This document shows positions 10,550 to 17,112 of a stretch of DNA of 45,005 nucleotides, piece by piece. Position 1 is the stretch's first letter, and every line of letters begins with the position of its first letter. The stretch is from a virus (lineage: Duplodnaviria > Heunggongvirae > Uroviricota > Caudoviricetes), in IMG/VR virus record IMGVR_UViG_2778261502_000007, positions 1 through 45,005 of that record; one strand, written 5' to 3'. The position numbers and the translations under genes are program-made. Below the pieces are notes generated by a model, which was given only the letters and a program-made list of their open reading frames with translations, was not told the origin of the DNA and did no database searches.

Positions 10550-10679
10550 AAACGATTTGCGGGAAAAGGATAGTTAAGTAGAATTGCTGCGGGTGCTTGA
10601 GGCTGTCTGCCTCGGGCATGCCACTGTAAGGCAGACAGAGAAAAGCCCCAGTTAACATTACGCGTCCGGCAAGACGCTT

Positions 10680-10760
10680 AACATTAATCTGAGGCCAATT
10701 TCATGCTTTGCACATGTAGGTTAGCCTCTTACGCGCCGGAAGGCAAGGAGAAGCAGGCTA
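10680..10760 (-). ncRNA. Sok-like antisense RNA (approximate)
   Basis: Inferred from hok family organisation only; boundaries not determined. Confidence 0.3.
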
Positions 10761-10915
10761 TGAAGCAGCAAAAGGCGATGTTAATCGCCCTGATCGTCAT
10801 CTGTTTAACCGTCATAGTGACGGCACTGGTAACGAGGAAAGACCTCTGCGAGGTACGAATCCGAACCGGCCAGACGGAGGTCGCTGTCTTCACAGCTTAC
10901 GAATCTGAGGAGTAA
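10760..10915 (+). CDS. hok: Hok/Gef-family type I toxin (51 aa)
   Basis: MKQQKAMLIALIVICLTVIVTALVTRKDLCEVRIRTGQTEVAVFTAYESEE; in-frame upstream leader from 10703; structured 5' region with 9 bp inverted repeat CTGTCTGCC...GGCAGACAG. Confidence 0.85.
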   Translation: MKQQKAMLIALIVICLTVIVTALVTRKDLCEVRIRTGQTEVAVFTAYESEE

Positions 10916-11381
10916 GAGACCTGGCGGGGGATAAATCCCTCGCCACCTCTGATGTGTCAGGCATCCTCAACGCACCCGCACTTAACCTGCTTTGGCGGGT
11001 ATATTTTATCTGTGAATGTTTTTATAAAAATAATGCCCACGCACAGCATAAAACAAAAAGTATTACAGATAAAAAAGGAACGTAATGTGCAGATTTGTTG
11101 TTTTCCATATTTACTCACCTTAATATGATTAACCCTGATAGGGTTGTTATTTCAGCGGTTTTCAAATGAGATATTATGGTGATCTGACAAATTTGCATAA
11201 CATTAAAATTTAATTTGTTTAACCGCTTTTAATAATAAGCGTTGTTTGTATCCCAGCAATCTGTTGTTTGGTTTTTATTCCATTAAGGTGGGGGCTTTAC
11301 ACTGGAACCAGTTTATTTATACTTTATACGTCAGCCTGAACAACTGGCATCTGCTGCACTGCGCCATCGAGAGATTGAGAA

Positions 11382-11981
11382 ATGGCGCATATACAACTGG
11401 TCAAACAAACCTCTTCTGGTTTACTTCTCCCGGCGACGCCGGAGAGTTGCGATTTTCTGCATCAAATCAAAATAGGTGAGTGGATACACGCAGACTTTAA
11501 GCGTGTGCGTAACTACGCATTCCACAAGCGTTTTTTCAAACTCCTGCAACTCGGATTCGATTACTGGACTCCGGTCGGTGGGGCGATCACGCCTCGTGAA
11601 CGAACACTGGTGTCAGGTTTCGTTGATTACCTGTGTGACTCGGTAGGCAGGGAACATACGCCAGCCCTGAGCGAAGCCGCAGAGCAATATCTGAATACAG
11701 TTGCGACACGCAGAACCCGGGATACGGCATTGCTAAAGTCGTTTGAGGCTTTTCGCGAGTGGGTAACCATTCAGGCTGGATTTTACACCGAACATTTTTA
11801 TCCGGACGGTAGCCATGGGCGTCGGGCGAAATCCATCGCTTTTGCGAATATGGACGAAACCGAGTTTCAGCAGGTTTATAAATCTGTACTGAATGTGCTG
11901 TGGAACTGGATTCTGTTCCGTAAATTTTCCTCTCCGGAACAAGTCGAAAATGTGACTGCACAGCTGCTGGAGTTTGCGTGA
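11382..11981 (+). CDS. Conserved nin-region protein (possibly DUF1367-like)
   Basis: 199 aa; family from memory, low certainty. Confidence 0.45.
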   Translation: MAHIQLVKQTSSGLLLPATPESCDFLHQIKIGEWIHADFKRVRNYAFHKRFFKLLQLGFDYWTPVGGAITPRERTLVSGFVDYLCDSVGREHTPALSEAAEQYLNTVATRRTRDTALLKSFEAFREWVTIQAGFYTEHFYPDGSHGRRAKSIAFANMDETEFQQVYKSVLNVLWNWILFRKFSSPEQVENVTAQLLEFA

Positions 11982-12271
11982 TGGCAGATTTACGTAAAGC
12001 GGCGCGGGGCCAGATGTGTCAGGTCAGAATTCCTGGGTACTGCAATCACAATCCCGAAACTTCCGTGCTGGCGGATTACAGACTGGCGGGGACGTGTGGA
12101 ACAGCGACAAAGCCACACGATATGCAGGCTGCAATTGCCTGTAGCTCATGCCACGATTTAATCGACGGGAGAGTAAAAACCAGCGATTACACCAAAGAAG
12201 AATTACGCCTGATGCATGCAGAAGGTGTTTTTCGCACACAAGAAATCTGGAGAAAGGAAGGTTATTTATGA
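11978..12271 (+). CDS. YbcO-like Cys-rich protein (DUF1364-like)
   Basis: MMADLRKAARGQMCQVRIPGYCNHNPETSVLA... with several Cys/His; ATGA overlap with Q gene. Confidence 0.5.
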   Translation: MMADLRKAARGQMCQVRIPGYCNHNPETSVLADYRLAGTCGTATKPHDMQAAIACSSCHDLIDGRVKTSDYTKEELRLMHAEGVFRTQEIWRKEGYL

Positions 12272-12819
12272 TTTACCCAACAAATACAGGAAAAAGCGGG
12301 GAACACCTTCGTCTCACCACGCTGGAAAGTGTCTGGATTCAGGGAAAACTGCGTATGTGGGGGCGCTGGTCGTATATTGGCGGCGGTAAGACGGGGAATA
12401 TGTTTAACCAGTTGCTGGCATCCAAAAAATTGACGAAAACAGCCATCAATGAAGTTCTGCGCAGGATGAAAAAAGCGGGGATTGATAAGACGGAACTGGA
12501 GGCATTTTTGCGGGAAATGCTCGACGGTAAGCAGAAAAGCTGGTTGTCTCATTGTACTGATGCCGAGGCGTTATGTATTGATCGGGTAATTAGCGAAGTG
12601 CTGGTCGAGTATCCGGGATTAATTAGCATCCTCCGACAACGATATGAAGGGCGGGGAATGAGCAAACTGAAAATGGCAGAGCAGTTAAATGAAAATCATC
12701 CTGACTGGACATTAATTACCTGTCGACGTCGTATCGATCAATGGCTGATGATTGCTGAATTTATGCTTTATAAACCAATGTTCACGGCACAAAAAAAACT
12801 ATTGCAAAGTGAGCAATAA
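12268..12819 (+). CDS. Q-family late antiterminator (183 aa)
   Basis: ATG 12268 after AAGGAAG; ...KLRMWGRWSYIGGG... resembles QuuD-type Q; followed by terminator, promoters and late genes. Confidence 0.55.
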   Translation: MIYPTNTGKSGEHLRLTTLESVWIQGKLRMWGRWSYIGGGKTGNMFNQLLASKKLTKTAINEVLRRMKKAGIDKTELEAFLREMLDGKQKSWLSHCTDAEALCIDRVISEVLVEYPGLISILRQRYEGRGMSKLKMAEQLNENHPDWTLITCRRRIDQWLMIAEFMLYKPMFTAQKKLLQSEQ

Positions 12820-12887
12820 GCTGCTTCAATTCAGTTACGCTTCGCAAAGCTGTATCGCGAGGTTAACCAGAAACGTGAACTTAAAAA

Positions 12888-12910
12888 CCCGCCACTGGCG
12901 GTTTTTTTTA
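12888..12910 (+). terminator. Intrinsic terminator downstream of Q
   Basis: CCGCC-ACT-GGCGG stem followed by T8. Confidence 0.5.
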
Positions 12911-13003
12911 TTCCTGAAGCCTGATTAAAAAATGCGCGATTAAATGGTCGTATAAAATATATTTTGTGTACATTTGTGACTGTTTTTAAATTTATATAAA
13001 AAG

Positions 13004-13072
13004 TTGACAAAATAGAAAACTAAAAATAAATTTACAAAACTTGACGCTGCGATGTATTGCAGTTTTATTATT
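13004..13072 (+). promoter_or_regulatory. Tandem promoter-like elements upstream of tRNAs
   Basis: TTGACA (13004-13009), 17 nt, TAAATT; second TTGACG at 13041 with AT-rich -10. Confidence 0.4.
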
Positions 13073-13141
13073 TAAACGTATTATTTGCCGCAGTTCTTCA
13101 GGGGGGAGTAATTGCGATATATTCCTGTCTGAGGAAATAAT

Positions 13142-13217
<76 letters not shown>

Positions 13218-13220
13218 TAT

Positions 13221-13295
<75 letters not shown>

Positions 13296-13660
13296 GCAAA
13301 ACAAATGAGGTATAGGTTTTTCAGCACTGGCGTTTTTTTCGCGGGAAAGGTCTCGTATATCCTTTATCGCTCTCCCGAATTATAATGGAGACCAGTTATG
13401 ATTTCGGTGCTGTGTTTTTTGATACTATCGGAATAGTGCATTATTGGTGGGATTTTTTTGATGTTTCCTGGCAGGGGCTGATTATGCACTATCCCGATGT
13501 TATTAACATCACAAAATGAGGTGAGCCCCATGTGCGGGGGTGGTTTAAGTGGTTGTTTAGCGGGGAAACTACAGTATCTGATGGTATGTCAGGTATTTCG
13601 GGAGGCACCCGACACCTCACCTATATTATAATAATACTCTTCAGCACTTACTGATTTGAC

Positions 13661-13688
13661 CACCGCCTTAACAGGCGGTTTTTTTTCG
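13661..13688 (+). terminator. Intrinsic terminator
   Basis: CCGCC-TTAACA-GGCGG plus T8. Confidence 0.5.
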
Positions 13689-13859
13689 GTAATTTGCAGA
13701 ATTGTACGCTGAATAAGCATTACATCGTTAAATTTATAACTTATTCCGAATATGCGGTGCTTGCTTATTGTTAGCTTGCTGACATTTCTGTATCTTGCTG
13801 CGCCGCAGGTTTCCCCTGTAACGACGCTTGTATGATGAATCATTTAAACTTTGTAATTT

Positions 13860-13891
13860 GCCAGCCAGTCTCTGGTGGCTGGCTTTTTTTT
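13860..13891 (+). terminator. Intrinsic terminator
   Basis: GCCAGCCA-loop-TGGCTGGC plus T8. Confidence 0.55.
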
Positions 13892-13945
13892 GCAAGGTGT
13901 TCTGATAGTTCTGTTCGTCAGACTGGATTCCCGCAGAACAAAAAG

Positions 13946-14027
13946 CCGTCACTAACTCATTGGGTAAGAGTGCATAACACATATTGTTGTTTTGTGGTGC
14001 GGGGTTCGAGTCCCCGGTGACGGTCCA
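13946..14027 (+). other. tRNA-like element (tRNA remnant or atypical tRNA)
   Basis: Canonical acceptor CCGTCAC/GTGACGG, T-arm CGGGG-TTCGAGT-CCCCG and 3' TCCA, but anticodon arm does not fold canonically. Confidence 0.3.
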
Positions 14028-14054
14028 CTTGTAATGGTAAATATACTTTTAACA

Positions 14055-14077
14055 GGCTCGCTTCGGTGAGCTTTTTG
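14055..14077 (+). terminator. Hairpin with UUCG tetraloop and T-run
   Basis: GGCTCGC-TTCG-GTGAGCT then TTTTT. Confidence 0.4.
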
Positions 14078-14110
14078 TATGAGTTCAATCCGGTTTATAT
14101 TGGCGAAAAA

Positions 14111-14148
14111 GGGCGCGGCTGTCGGATTAAAGCCGCGGGACAAAGTCC
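14111..14148 (+). repeat. Structured motif copy A
   Basis: GCGGCT-GTCGGATTAA-AGCCGC then GGAC-AAA-GTCC; followed by ATG at 14149. Confidence 0.5.
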
Positions 14149-15010
14149 ATGAAGAAGAATAAGTATCTGCCTCCTTCAGGAGACATGTTTATACTACTAA
14201 GCATTTAGAATGGTTTAAATCCTCAGATTAACCTTAATTTCAGATAAGGCTTATTTCATTTTTTCGCGCACACCCGGCGCACATCAAAAACCACATAACC
14301 TTTCAGGGGTGAGCTTACGGGATGATCAGTGTGACTTGAGCTGGTCACTCCGGGCGGAGGCTCATCCACTAAAAGGAAACGTCACGATGTTTGGGATTTT
14401 CAAAAGAAAACCCGTAAGCCCATTGTTGAAATAAAGATGATGGAAAACTACGTGATAATGGGCGGCCGGTGGGTGTTTTCATGTGGCAAGAATCATTTTT
14501 CAGATTATTACAGTTGAAGTGATTTTATTCCTTGTTATTATACACCTGTCTTCTGGGAGAGTTATCTTATTCCCCGATAAGAATCCATATGAAGAGTAAA
14601 AATCGTTCAGGAAACAGGATCGCTGATTTGTAATTGGCTAGTCAGTGGCTGGAATCGCTCTGGCAGTAGATGAGACTCACTTATATTAAGCACTGACGCT
14701 TTATTCGTGGTAAGTTTTCGTAACTGTCGCTTTTTGTTTTGTAATAAAAACAAAACATCACGGTGTTGGTGTTGTTATTTTACAATAGCGGGATGGTGTA
14801 TTTTCGGTAGAAATGTTGTGTTTCTTTGGAGAGTCGGAAATACATCATTCCGGTGTTGTAAATAACACCAAAGAGATGTTTCCCGGTATGAGAGTGGTTT
14901 ACATTGTTGCTTTTGGAACCACAATATCTGGCATAAAGTCAGATATTCAGGGAAGTCCACAACATCTCAATTTCACTACAATAAAAATGATTCATCTTCA
15001 GCATTGTTCA

Positions 15011-15036
15011 ACCGCCGCACTAGGCGGTTTTTTTTG
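15011..15036 (+). terminator. Intrinsic terminator
   Basis: ACCGCC-GCACTA-GGCGGT plus T9. Confidence 0.55.
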
Positions 15037-15120
15037 TGTTGAATTCAAAAAAATACACGGACACTGATAATGTCCGTGTGGCAATGCCATGTAAGTCAAC
15101 GATGAATATGACACAAAAAA

Positions 15121-15157
15121 AACGCGACCGTCGGATTAAGGTCGCTGGACAAAGTCC
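15121..15157 (+). repeat. Structured motif copy B (compensatory stem changes)
   Basis: GCGACC-GTCGGATTAA-GGTCGC then GGAC-AAA-GTCC; followed by GTG at 15158. Confidence 0.5.
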
Positions 15158-15397
15158 GTGAAGCATAACGAATTTCCGTTCCTCCCCCCGTTCGGGAAGT
15201 GCAAAAAGTATATAAATTAATTTTTCTCGTTTAAACAGGAAAGTTAATCTGAATTTCTGGTAATCCTTATTCCCGTACATTAATTCTTCGCTTTTCATAT
15301 CAGACTATGTCACACAAAAGGCATTTGCGGATTCCTTCGATGGGATGTTGTTTTTTACGGGCCGCTGGTGGCCTTTTTTATTTACAGGAGAAAAAGT

Positions 15398-15787
15398 ATG
15401 TCTGAACCCTTATCCGGTTCCGGCACGGCTGCGGCGCTCGGCGGGGCGACGGTATTCGGGCTCTTTACCGGAACGGATTTCGGGATTGTGTTTGGTGCGT
15501 TCGCCGGGGCGTTATTTGTGGCAACGATACCGCAGCAGCTTTCAGCCTGGCGGATAGCGGCGCATTTTCTGGTGTCGTTCATTATCGGCGTGCTGGGGGC
15601 AGAGGTTCTGGCATCCTGGCTGGTCAGGCATACAGAGTTTGACGGTGCACCTGTCGATGCATTGTGTGCAGTGCTGGTGTCAGTGGTGTCGGTGAAGATT
15701 CTGTCGTTCATCCACCAGCAGGATATCGCATCACTGGTGTCCGGCCTGTTCTCCCGCCAGCGGGGTGGGGGAGGCGGCAATGCCTGA
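15398..15787 (+). CDS. Holin-like multi-TM membrane protein (129 aa)
   Basis: ATG 15398 after AGGAG; several Gly/Ala-rich hydrophobic segments; first gene of lysis cassette. Confidence 0.5.
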   Translation: MSEPLSGSGTAAALGGATVFGLFTGTDFGIVFGAFAGALFVATIPQQLSAWRIAAHFLVSFIIGVLGAEVLASWLVRHTEFDGAPVDALCAVLVSVVSVKILSFIHQQDIASLVSGLFSRQRGGGGGNA

Positions 15788-16058
15788 TAACCTTTCTGGA
15801 TTGCTGAATGTAGCGTTATGCACGGTTATCGTGTTGACGCTTTTTTTTTATCGTCGTCATGATTCCAGACATAAACCGCTGATGTCATGGCTGGCTTGGC
15901 TGCTGATGCTGCTTTATGCCCTTGCGCCACTCAGCTATCTGTGTGGTCGTCTGTTAGCGGCGAACTGGCTGGTGGTGTTTTTTAATCTGCTGTTCTGCGT
16001 GCTGGTGATACGTGCACGTGGGAATGTTTCAAAAATCCTTGCATTACGAAGGTACTGA
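15780..16058 (+). CDS. Second holin/antiholin-like membrane protein (92 aa)
   Basis: ATG 15780 after GGAGG; three hydrophobic segments; overlaps neighbours. Confidence 0.5.
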   Translation: MPDNLSGLLNVALCTVIVLTLFFYRRHDSRHKPLMSWLAWLLMLLYALAPLSYLCGRLLAANWLVVFFNLLFCVLVIRARGNVSKILALRRY

Positions 16059-16059
16059 A

Positions 16060-16605
16060 ATGAAGTCGAAAGATGAAATTTTTGACGAAGTTCTGGGAAA
16101 AGAGGGCGGTTACGTCAACCATCCGGATGATAAAGGTGGTCCGACCAAATGGGGCATTACTGAAAAAGTCGCCCGGGCGCACGGATATCAGGGCGATATG
16201 CGTGACCTGACGCGCGGGCAGGCGCTGGAAATACTCGAGGCGGATTACTGGTACGGCCCACGTTTTGACCAGGTGGCAAATTTGTCCCCGGATATTGCCG
16301 CAGAGCTGTGCGACACAGGCGTGAACATGGGACCAACTGTGGCGTCCAGAATGCTTCAACGCTGGCTGAACGTTTTCAACCTGCGCGGGAAACTGTATCC
16401 GGATATGGATGCAGACGGACGTATCGGCCCACGGACTATTAATGCGTTACGGGCATATCTGAAAAATCGCGGCAGAGATGGAGAGTTGGTAATGCTGACC
16501 GCACTGAACTGTACGCAGGGGGACCGCTATCTGGAACTGGCAGAGAGACGGGAGGCCAACGAGTCGTTTGTCTACGGCTGGATGAAAGAGCGCGTGGCAG
16601 TTTAA
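16060..16605 (+). CDS. Endolysin, GH108-type muramidase-like
   Basis: Motif EGGYVNHPDDKGGPTKWGIT typical of GH108 N-terminus as recalled; position after holins. Confidence 0.65.
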   Translation: MKSKDEIFDEVLGKEGGYVNHPDDKGGPTKWGITEKVARAHGYQGDMRDLTRGQALEILEADYWYGPRFDQVANLSPDIAAELCDTGVNMGPTVASRMLQRWLNVFNLRGKLYPDMDADGRIGPRTINALRAYLKNRGRDGELVMLTALNCTQGDRYLELAERREANESFVYGWMKERVAV

Positions 16606-16704
16606 AAACTGACGCTGAAGTGCTGAACACCCTCAACTTATTTCGGCTCTATTCTGAATTTACGATGGGCAAAAGTCAGGGTAATGGCGTCAGATGGCAA
16701 AAAG

Positions 16705-16745
16705 CAAAAACCCCGGCTGCGGTAACAGTCCGGGGTTTTCTGTTT
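16705..16745 (+). terminator. Intrinsic terminator
   Basis: CCCCGG-loop-CCGGGG followed by TTTTCTGTTT. Confidence 0.5.
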
Positions 16746-16772
16746 CTGGCCTTGGGTAAGGCAAAGGAAAAC

Positions 16773-16955
16773 ATGAGGAATTATAAACTAATTCTGTTGA
16801 GGTTGACTATGAAAAACGGCCTTGAATTGAAAGCGCCTGTAACTGATGACATCAGCAGAGCGGTGGCTTTTGCCATTAAGTGGGTGGCTGTCGGTATCGC
16901 TGTGTCTCCGATGCTGTATGGGCTGGCAAAATTGATCGTTGCGCTGAAATCGTGA
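16773..16955 (+). CDS. Small membrane protein (60 aa; alternative start 16809)
   Basis: Internal starts of track ORF 16620..16955, both with SD; C-terminal hydrophobic helix. Confidence 0.4.
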   Translation: MRNYKLILLRLTMKNGLELKAPVTDDISRAVAFAIKWVAVGIAVSPMLYGLAKLIVALKS

Positions 16956-16977
16956 GTGGGGGAATTAAGGGGTAAAT

Positions 16978-17112
16978 ATGTCAGACAGCATTATAAAACT
17001 GGCGCGGATTCTCTGTGTGGTTGTTGGTCTTTCATTTTCAGCAATGTTGGTTGCTATTTTCATTTCCACCGCCTGGCGAGTATTGAGCTTATCCGGGTTG
17101 ATTGGTGGATAG
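16978..17112 (+). CDS. Small single-TM protein (44 aa)
   Basis: ATG after AAGGGG; MSDSIIKLARILCVVVGLSFSAMLVAIFISTAWRVL...; below track cutoff. Confidence 0.4.
   Translation: MSDSIIKLARILCVVVGLSFSAMLVAIFISTAWRVLSLSGLIGG

Follow-up and report, generated by a model that had tools for sequence, protein, structure and literature searches.

The window analysed here is a stretch of 45,005 nucleotides (nt) of a virus of the Caudoviricetes, IMG/VR record IMGVR_UViG_2778261502_000007, and our subject is a tRNA-like element of 82 nt on its + strand. ARAGORN calls a tRNA gene at exactly 13946-14027, the span where a first-pass annotation, made from the letters alone, had described a canonical acceptor stem, T arm and CCA end. 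This description holds in every part, see Table 1. The element also contains U8 and A14 (sequence TA-ACTC-ATTGGGTAA-GAGT). Among the features of a canonical elongator tRNA it thus has the acceptor stem, the discriminator and CCA, a D arm with U8, A14 and G18G19, and a T arm of the UUCRANY type. The acceptor arm and the T arm are the same as in the canonical member of a family of prophage tRNAs described below, and the T arm is that of the canonical prophage tRNA-Lys of loci L002 and L006 (L numbers denote compared loci). Across eight distinct sequences the acceptor stem is paired at every position, the only change being from U-A to U.G. Judged from the DNA, the locus clearly encodes an RNA with the acceptor, D and T arms of a phage tRNA family and with a non-canonical anticodon domain that has a conserved stem.

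The first-pass annotation also held that no standard anticodon arm with U33 can be formed, and this is borne out by the central domain. It consists of a linker GC (2 nt), a stem ATAAC/GTTGT, a loop ACATATT and a variable region TTTGTGGTG of 9 nt. A 5-7-5 arm can be drawn at 13974-13990 (ATAAC-ACATATT-GTTGT), and it is the only arm homologous to an anticodon arm. Its loop, ACAUAUU, reads C33, A34-U35-A36 and U37, in place of the canonical U33 and a purine at 37. The spacer between the D stem and the anticodon stem is 2 nt, while the canonical spacer is 1 nt (position 26), and the variable region, 9 nt in the homologous fold, belongs neither to class I (4-5 nt) nor to class II (a stem-loop of at least about 10 nt). 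Compared with 77-nt tRNAs the element has gained 5 nt, one after the D stem and four in the variable region, and the anticodon stem has changed from UCAAC/GUUGA in a canonical family member to AUAAC/GUUGU.

Table 1. Coordinates of the tRNA-like element, its parts and neighbouring features in the window
Feature	Position	Strand	Details
Whole tRNA-like element	13946..14027	+	ARAGORN tRNA-Tyr(ata); family model R1 67.7 bits; 81% identity to prophage tRNA-Lys
Acceptor stem, 5' strand CCGTCAC	13946..13952	+	Pairs with 14017-14023 GTGACGG, 7/7 Watson-Crick
D arm, stem ACTC/GAGT (4 bp)	13955..13971	+	Loop ATTGGGTAA carrying G18G19
Central domain, 28 nt (relatives: 23 nt)	13972..13999	+	Aligned to the tRNA-Lys family and L115
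T arm CGGGG-TTCGAGT-CCCCG	14000..14016	+	5-bp stem, canonical loop
Discriminator U73 and encoded CCA	14024..14027	+	CCA at 14025-14027; invariant in all alleles and the whole family
Q-type antiterminator gene	12148..12819	+	Pfam DUF1133 346.9 bits; Phage_antitermQ 27 bits
Promoter-like site	13004-13032		
tRNA-Thr(UGU)	13142-13217	+	72.3 bits; cluster slot 3
tRNA-Gly(UCC)	13221-13295	+	63.4 bits; cluster slot 4
Upstream intrinsic terminator	13860..13891	+	Terminator-like site 13860-13883; ends an sRNA-like unit; terminator scan
26-nt trailer and intrinsic terminator	14028..14080	+	Hairpin 14054-14073, then a T run; terminator scan
Holins and endolysin	from 15368 onward (holins)		Downstream of the element

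Among 5426 complete E. coli genomes, the best matches after the 16 genomes that carry the element itself are annotated prophage tRNA-Lys genes, which align to it with 81% identity over exactly its length. The family in question occupies the second position, here called slot 2, of a tRNA cluster that lies directly downstream of Q in lambdoid prophages and has the order Ile2(CAU)-X-Thr(UGU)-Gly(UCC), where X is a Lys, Arg or Thr variant. A covariance model (R1) built solely from eight 77-nt members of the slot-2 family scores the element at 67.7 bits (E ~4e-19) over model positions 1-77; unrelated tRNA-Gly genes score 36-38 bits. A chance fold, or a false positive of ARAGORN, was considered and rejected, given the clear homology to an annotated tRNA family; the 25-nt 3' half, with one occurrence in the window against 0 expected in shuffled sequences, likewise speaks against chance. 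On this homology the element is a genuine, diverged member of the slot-2 lineage of prophage tRNAs, and its best explanation appears to be an orphan, diverged paralogue of a slot-2 tRNA. It does not reside in the cluster: slots 1 and 2 are absent from the window, and the element is found 650 nt downstream of tRNA-Gly, while the spacers of the cluster in its relatives are 1-3 nt. The idea that it derives from a tRNA and adds a third gene of tRNA type to the Thr(UGU) and Gly(UCC) genes of this prophage is thereby upheld; the comparison with the tRNA clusters of related prophages, which had been proposed as a check, finds true tRNAs of the same family.

The slot-2 family is large, with members in more than 119 viral contigs according to a pattern scan for the common 3' half, and its commonest sequence is carried by 798 of the 5426 E. 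coli genomes (~15%). It combines a constant body with a changeable anticodon loop. The canonical Lys member has the loop CUUUUAU; the dominant form, also a 'Lys', has CCUUUAA with C33 and, in addition, an A.C mismatch in the T stem. Other members have CCUGUAA (annotated Thr) or UUUCUAA and CUUCUAA (Arg), and there are loops of aberrant size, i.e., an 8-nt loop CUUUUUAU (ARAGORN 'tttt', L003:1502-1579 and L019) and a 6-nt loop in a relative from Edwardsiella hoshinae (L031:1226-1302, minus strand), which has the AUAAC/GUUGU stem and the 2-nt linker of our element. Anticodon shifts and odd loops on constant prophage tRNA bodies, seen for instance at L144:393-469 and L145:472-547, are not limited to this slot: the slot-2 Lys body exists with UGU (annotated Thr), and the slot-3 Thr body exists with UUU (annotated Lys).

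The most informative relative is L115, an 82-nt gene on the IMG/VR contig UViG_2684622582_000006 (726-807, minus strand), which does sit in slot 2 of a tRNA cluster. It has in common with the element the 2-nt linker, a 5-bp A/U-rich stem, A32, C33, U38 and the 9-nt variable region, while its loop is ACCAGAU (CAG, A37) compared with ACRUAUU in the element. The common 82-nt architecture shows the rebuilt arm to be old and heritable, and the pairs counted below argue that the cloverleaf, including the 5-bp 'anticodon' stem, was retained while the sequences diverged. The L115-type gene is known from one contig only and was not found in complete E. coli genomes. Pattern scans of viral, metagenome and genome contigs turn up no member of the 82-nt subfamily beyond 14 viral contigs, a single metagenome contig and L115, and the INPHARED phage collection has zero matches.

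Between the commonest allele of the element and L115 there are 15 differences, five of them in stems, and none of the 21 cloverleaf pairs is broken. The stem differences comprise one compensatory double change and three exchanges between Watson-Crick and G.U pairs. The double change concerns pair 10-25 of the D stem, which is A-U in the window element and G-C in L115 and in every 77-nt relative, with a G.U intermediate at the Edwardsiella locus. The stem of the central arm is likewise paired in eight of eight sequences, with U.G replaced by C-G in L115. When substitutions matched in number and type were placed at random in 200,000 simulations, all pairs remained intact in only 0.06% (P = 6e-4), and given five stem hits in 0.4% (P = 0.004), although this covariation evidence comes from the two lineages of the subfamily and thus from very few lineages. 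A neutrally decaying pseudogene has lesions along its whole length and loses stem pairs at the neutral rate, and the comparison with L115 does not follow this pattern.

The loop behaves differently from the body. Positions 34-37 are wholly different between the two lineages (GUAU or AUAU compared with CAGA), and positions 32, 33 and 38 are kept. Such a pattern would suit a tRNA mimic that does not decode, in which a conserved body presents a variable anticodon-like loop as a decoy or inhibitor of anticodon nucleases, modification enzymes or toxins. The turnover of loops in the slot-2 family (UUU, UCU and UGU, C33, the 6-nt and 8-nt loops) points in the same direction, and the tRNAs that neighbour the element match known nuclease targets, Thr-UGU and Lys-UUU (PMC12445682, PMC11464382). 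We nevertheless regard a mimic as improbable. It is purely inferential, the literature consulted documents no decoy tRNA of this kind, and relaxed selection in cryptic prophages would give the same turnover; the rare distribution and the T-stem lesions of some alleles also fit it poorly. The broader version, in which the 82-nt subfamily as a whole (the element and L115) would be no decaying tRNA but a decoy or inhibitor against the anticodon nucleases of hosts or competitors, with a fast-changing loop on a conserved body that tRNA-processing and tRNA-targeting enzymes recognise, and part of an arms race played out in slot 2, is to be treated with similar doubt.

The fold of the central domain is less certain than that of the other arms. 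The minimum free energy (MFE) fold, the RNAalifold consensus, the alignment to the family model and the Rfam alignment give four mutually different pairings of this region, and the U/G-rich 3' side (GUUGUUUUGUGGUG) allows the 5' strand to pair in several registers. Three other registers are at least as stable as the homologous arm, and energies were computed for two of them, the MFE and RNAalifold folds. For the window allele the homologous cloverleaf has an energy of -23.3 to -24.4 kcal/mol, compared with about -27.3 kcal/mol for these two, so that pairing the 28 nt as in the cloverleaf costs 3-4 kcal/mol of stability. In L115 the order of the energies is reversed, and the MFE-type and RNAalifold-type folds each lose four of eight pairs. 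The two alternatives were therefore rejected as the conserved structure, although they could still form in the window allele. Because they break in L115, we regard the cloverleaf as the conserved structure, with a lower arm that is weak and probably dynamic.

The element is rare. The 211 nt around it match 16 of the 5426 complete E. coli genomes, at 92-93% identity. The nearest relative found is the IMG/VR contig UViG_2563366820_000003 (L023), which is 99.9% identical around the element, and over the region 11000-17000 no complete E. coli genome exceeds about 86-88% identity across more than 69% of the length. The host of the window may thus lie outside the complete E. coli assemblies. Within the element 7 of 82 sites segregate, with a nucleotide diversity (pi) of about 0.025-0.026. 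Position 34 is A in the window, in L023, in L017 and in strain A10 and G in the remaining alleles, and a purine, A or G, stands at position 32. The T stem is mismatched in two minor alleles, that of L017 and that of L018 and the metagenome contig L140. We propose that the fold was kept since the split from the L115 lineage and that it now drifts in a part of the prophages. At the same loci variation is also seen in the canonical Thr and Gly genes, whose stems, by inspection and not by count, appear to stay paired.

Most alleles carry G34-U35-A36, the anticodon of tyrosine, and the exchange of A and G at 34 keeps a nominal Tyr identity. It can be speculated from this that the element is a working but unusual decoding tRNA, for example one that reads Tyr codons (GUA in most alleles, AUA here), resists anticodon nucleases and rescues translation during lytic growth. 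The conserved fold agrees with such a role, and the GUA (Tyr) and CAG (Leu) loops of the subfamily match tRNAs that are class II in bacteria, as does its lengthened variable region. Phage tRNAs are known to counter tRNA nucleases (PMC12445682, PMC11555353), and mutations of the anticodon loop have been proposed as a way to evade nucleases (PMC10264068). However, the element has C33 where a U33 that forms the U-turn is near-universal, and it has U37. The variable region of 9 nt falls short of a true long arm, bacterial Tyr anticodons do not naturally have A34, the central arm has more stable competing folds, and the element is found in only 16 of the 5426 genomes. Further, tRNAs for A/U-rich codons normally need a modified purine at position 37. 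The tyrosyl- and leucyl-tRNA synthetases of E. coli (TyrRS and LeuRS) require A73, to which the U73 of the element is mismatched. A decoding tRNA is for these reasons an unlikely explanation.

Annotation tools handle the element poorly. RefSeq has no annotation at the locus in any of the 16 genomes. ARAGORN names the window allele Tyr(ata) and gives the commonest allele, two loop bases away, another fold and the name Val(aac); one substitution in the loop is enough for the switch, and on L140 it calls no tRNA. The Rfam tRNA model (RF00005) leaves the element unreported in scans of the whole window and of 1.3 kb, and it gives no hit for the commonest allele (CV839) or for L115 when each is searched alone. 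A search limited to the immediate surroundings of the window element does give a hit, which is taken up below; detection by Rfam is thus marginal and depends on filters, and this accounts for the blank in RefSeq. For comparison, the neighbouring tRNAs score 63-74 bits and the slot-2 Lys 44 bits. The latter score belongs to the dominant 'tRNA-Lys(UUU)' (L004:677-753 and more than 100 other loci), of which RefSeq leaves copies of 96-97% identity unannotated. The Rfam models of known mimics stay below their gathering scores, tmRNA with 16-19 bits against 47 and mascRNA with 17 against 42.5, both on the T arm, and the YrlA model has no match over the element. The first-pass annotation would have been undone if no tool had given a tRNA-like score and no related phage had a tRNA; scores and a related tRNA family both exist.

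The element is located in the late-gene leader of a lambdoid prophage. Upstream is a Q-type antiterminator gene, annotated by RefSeq as 'antitermination protein Q' at the matching position in relatives, which implies that transcription through the region would be late and antiterminated. Between Q and the holins there are the tRNAs and then a run of small RNA (sRNA)-like units, each ended by a terminator, and 12700-14500 holds 11 terminator-like sites compared with 1.9 expected. The element itself is flanked by two terminators, and a consensus scan of the + strand finds no sigma-70-like promoter in 13300-14500. Neither Pfam nor PHROG gives a match to the open reading frames that overlap it on the two strands. 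Decayed copies of the neighbouring tRNAs were looked for in the flanks of the element and rejected, as no local alignment reached significance, the best being a 9-mer of the Gly T arm (p ~0.06).

The window lineage contains ~410 nt (13692-14096) that the element-less prophages of strains WAT and 2009C-3133 do not have: an sRNA-like unit and terminator followed by the element, its trailer and terminator. In strain A10 only the element, some 12 nt before it, the 26-nt trailer and a portion of the hairpin are homologous to the window. Trailer and element are conserved to a like degree (pi 0.036 and ~0.025, respectively). These observations bring up the possibility that the element is a handle for RNA processing, at which cuts by ribonuclease (RNase) P or E release or stabilise its neighbours, either the 3' trailer and terminator as an Hfq-binding fragment of the 3' external spacer (3'ETS) type or the upstream sRNA-like unit. 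Element, trailer and terminator would then act as one conserved module, of similar low diversity and the only block common to A10. A precedent exists in the 3'ETS-leuZ of E. coli, where the 3' external spacer of a tRNA serves as a sponge for an sRNA. The surroundings, a mosaic of sRNA and terminator units that include an STnc100-like unit and PasA/PasC-like terminators (bioRxiv 10.64898/2026.05.13.724894), would fit as well. On the other side, Hfq binding or target pairing of the trailer is purely hypothetical, the terminator itself is not conserved in A10, and the kept pairing of the anticodon stem is left unexplained; we hold a processing handle to be quite unlikely.

The arrangement also bears on the suggestion that the element serves as an integration target, or is the remnant of one in which the 3' half was duplicated by site-specific recombination. 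tRNA genes are common integration sites, and this is the general ground for the idea. However, the element retains the two halves of a tRNA, each with homology to the family. The 25-nt 3' half is single in the 45-kb window with up to three mismatches allowed. The element is further embedded midway in the late leader, with Q upstream and the holins downstream, and the 'empty' prophage sites differ by exchange of the ~410-nt module of sRNA and terminator and not by an island flanked by repeats. An attachment site is accordingly very improbable, and this part of the first-pass annotation is not supported.

Several further features of the region were recorded. The Thr(UGU) and Gly(UCC) genes of the window are ~98.7% identical to the host genes thrU and glyT of the operon thrU-tyrU-glyT-thrT (L024:2003-2362), with a Thr-Gly spacing of 3 nt and tyrU missing between them. 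Because of this near-identity and the missing tyrU, the sequences suggest that the pair was captured from the host operon. Kinship of the element to the host tyrU was considered as well and rejected, as by inspection its arm is without similarity to tRNA-Tyr. At 13492-13691 there is a sub-threshold match to STnc100 (28.4 bits, gathering score 47) that ends at a terminator at 13662-13679, and the unit is also found in related prophages; in lambdoid prophages, STnc100 and PasD-type sRNAs have been reported as neighbours of the genes for Q and TerB (bioRxiv 10.64898/2026.05.13.724894). Just upstream of this unit, 13416-13509 forms a long near-perfect hairpin, kept in aligned related prophages, which matches mir-983 at chance level (32 bits).

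Two other sRNA-like units, at 13700-13893 and ~14560-14660, have a GCCAGC...GCTGGC terminator after TTTGTAATT, and the TTTGTAATT terminator regions, 13850-13875 and 14627-14652, are 81% identical. The terminators of these units resemble those of the PasA/PasC sRNAs of the enteropathogenic E. coli (EPEC) strain E2348/69, a likeness that is limited to the terminator region and weak overall. Further downstream, a direct repeat of 54 nt with 80% identity (14106-14159 and 15115-15168) has a hairpin (GCGGCUGUCGGAUUAAAGCCGC), after which come GGACAAAGUCC and a start codon, and a 19-codon open reading frame (14149-14208, MKKNKYLPPSGDMFILLSI) follows the first copy. The repeat block is conserved upstream of a TerB-family gene in many E. 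coli prophages. In the window this gene is a remnant at ~14388-14470, which keeps homology over the start codon and ~80 nt, lacks 1 nt near 14403 and then gives way to other sequence. The DUF3927 gene is absent as well. In the early region of the prophage, 10591-10765 strongly matches sok, the antitoxin RNA of toxin-antitoxin loci of the hok/sok type (Rfam RF01794, 113.6 bits).

Taken together, we lean towards the explanation that the element gives a processed, tRNA-shaped and effectively non-decoding RNA, i.e., a pseudo-tRNA whose fold was maintained until recently. The RNA would be made as part of the Q-modified late transcript, or else by reading through from the sRNA-like unit upstream, since the element has no promoter of its own and terminators on both sides. 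The RNA would then be excised by RNase P and trimmed at its 3' end to a stable, tRNA-shaped product of ~82 nt, as the recognition elements of the processing enzymes are intact and the CCA is encoded. Decoding would be absent or very poor because of C33, U37, the variable wobble base, the extra nucleotides at the junctions, which set the geometry of the anticodon arm, and a U73 that is unfit for the Tyr and Leu synthetases. The first-pass annotation had offered a decayed tRNA on the one hand and an unusual tRNA or tRNA-like RNA on the other, and each receives part of the evidence. Maintenance is favoured by the shared architecture of L115 and by the absence of broken pairs over 15 differences, decay by C33, U37, the polymorphic wobble base, the rarity and the T-stem lesions of two alleles.

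Several points weigh against a non-decoding pseudo-tRNA. The pair-preserving pattern suggests selection and is easier to reconcile with a working RNA than with a dead gene, although recombination with functional paralogues could mimic part of it. The dominant slot-2 'tRNA-Lys' (CCUUUAA), found in ~15% of E. coli genomes, has C33 too, so that C33 cannot by itself count as disabling in this family. The Rfam tRNA model, when given 13944-14029 alone, scores 36.7 bits compared with a gathering score of 29, with an 11-nt loop insertion. The diversity of the element is about half that of its flanks (~0.13 segregating sites per site), a difference that is not significant. Finally, all the steps beyond the statement that the DNA encodes a tRNA-shaped RNA are inferred.

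The closest known system is the slot-2 tRNA, which has the acceptor stem, U8, D arm, T arm, U73 and CCA in common with the element, as well as part of the anticodon stem (..AAC/GUU..), the final bases GUG of the variable region and, in its dominant member, C33. It differs in being 77 nt long, located in the cluster and annotated by RefSeq, while the element has 82 nt, a 2-nt linker, a 9-nt variable region, U37 and another loop, and stands alone. Non-decoding tRNA-like RNAs are known elsewhere, i.e., 'tRNA-Other' of Bacillus cereus, the stable RNAs in the tRNA cluster of phage T4, and mascRNA. They have the shape of a tRNA and are matured by tRNA enzymes, and the function of their anticodon is aberrant or missing; their likeness to the element is one of concept only, with no sequence relationship. 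By its sequence the element is neither a standard tRNA, as the anticodon arm and the variable region depart from one, nor does it show the pattern of a neutrally decaying pseudogene.

A different comparison is with phage tRNAs that act against host defence. The tRNA-Thr(UGU) of phage 21 protects lambda-like phages from P2 Old (PMC12445682), the tRNA-Lys of T5 counters PARIS (PMC11464382), and a phage tRNA-Tyr(GUA) protects against the PtuAB of retron-Eco7 (PMC11555353); mutations in the anticodon loop of phage tRNAs have been proposed as a route to nuclease resistance (PMC10264068). The element is likewise encoded by a phage and part of a late-expressed set, and its differences from its relatives concentrate in the anticodon arm. 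However, the anti-defence tRNAs have a canonical 7-nt loop and decode, while the element has C33, U37 and extra nucleotides, and is known from sequence alone; the papers cited do not cover it. The Thr(UGU) of the window is of the tRNA type reported as protective against P2 Old (PMC12445682).

For annotation, the consequence is that genome annotations and counts of phage tRNAs are unreliable at this locus, as RefSeq misses the gene and the names given by ARAGORN contradict each other between alleles. The locus itself is probably of little consequence, and if the element is only a drifting relic, the finding is an ordinary one. Phage tRNAs are now viewed as counter-measures to immune systems that cleave tRNAs, and it is the family-wide pattern of loops, including C33 in ~15% of E. 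coli genomes, that would be of interest for tRNA-targeting immunity. With a fixed body and an anticodon arm that has been altered repeatedly, by C33, by 6-nt and 8-nt loops, by switches between Lys, Arg and Thr and by the 5-nt expansion in the element, the slot-2 family would be a natural place to seek nuclease-resistant tRNAs or decoys.

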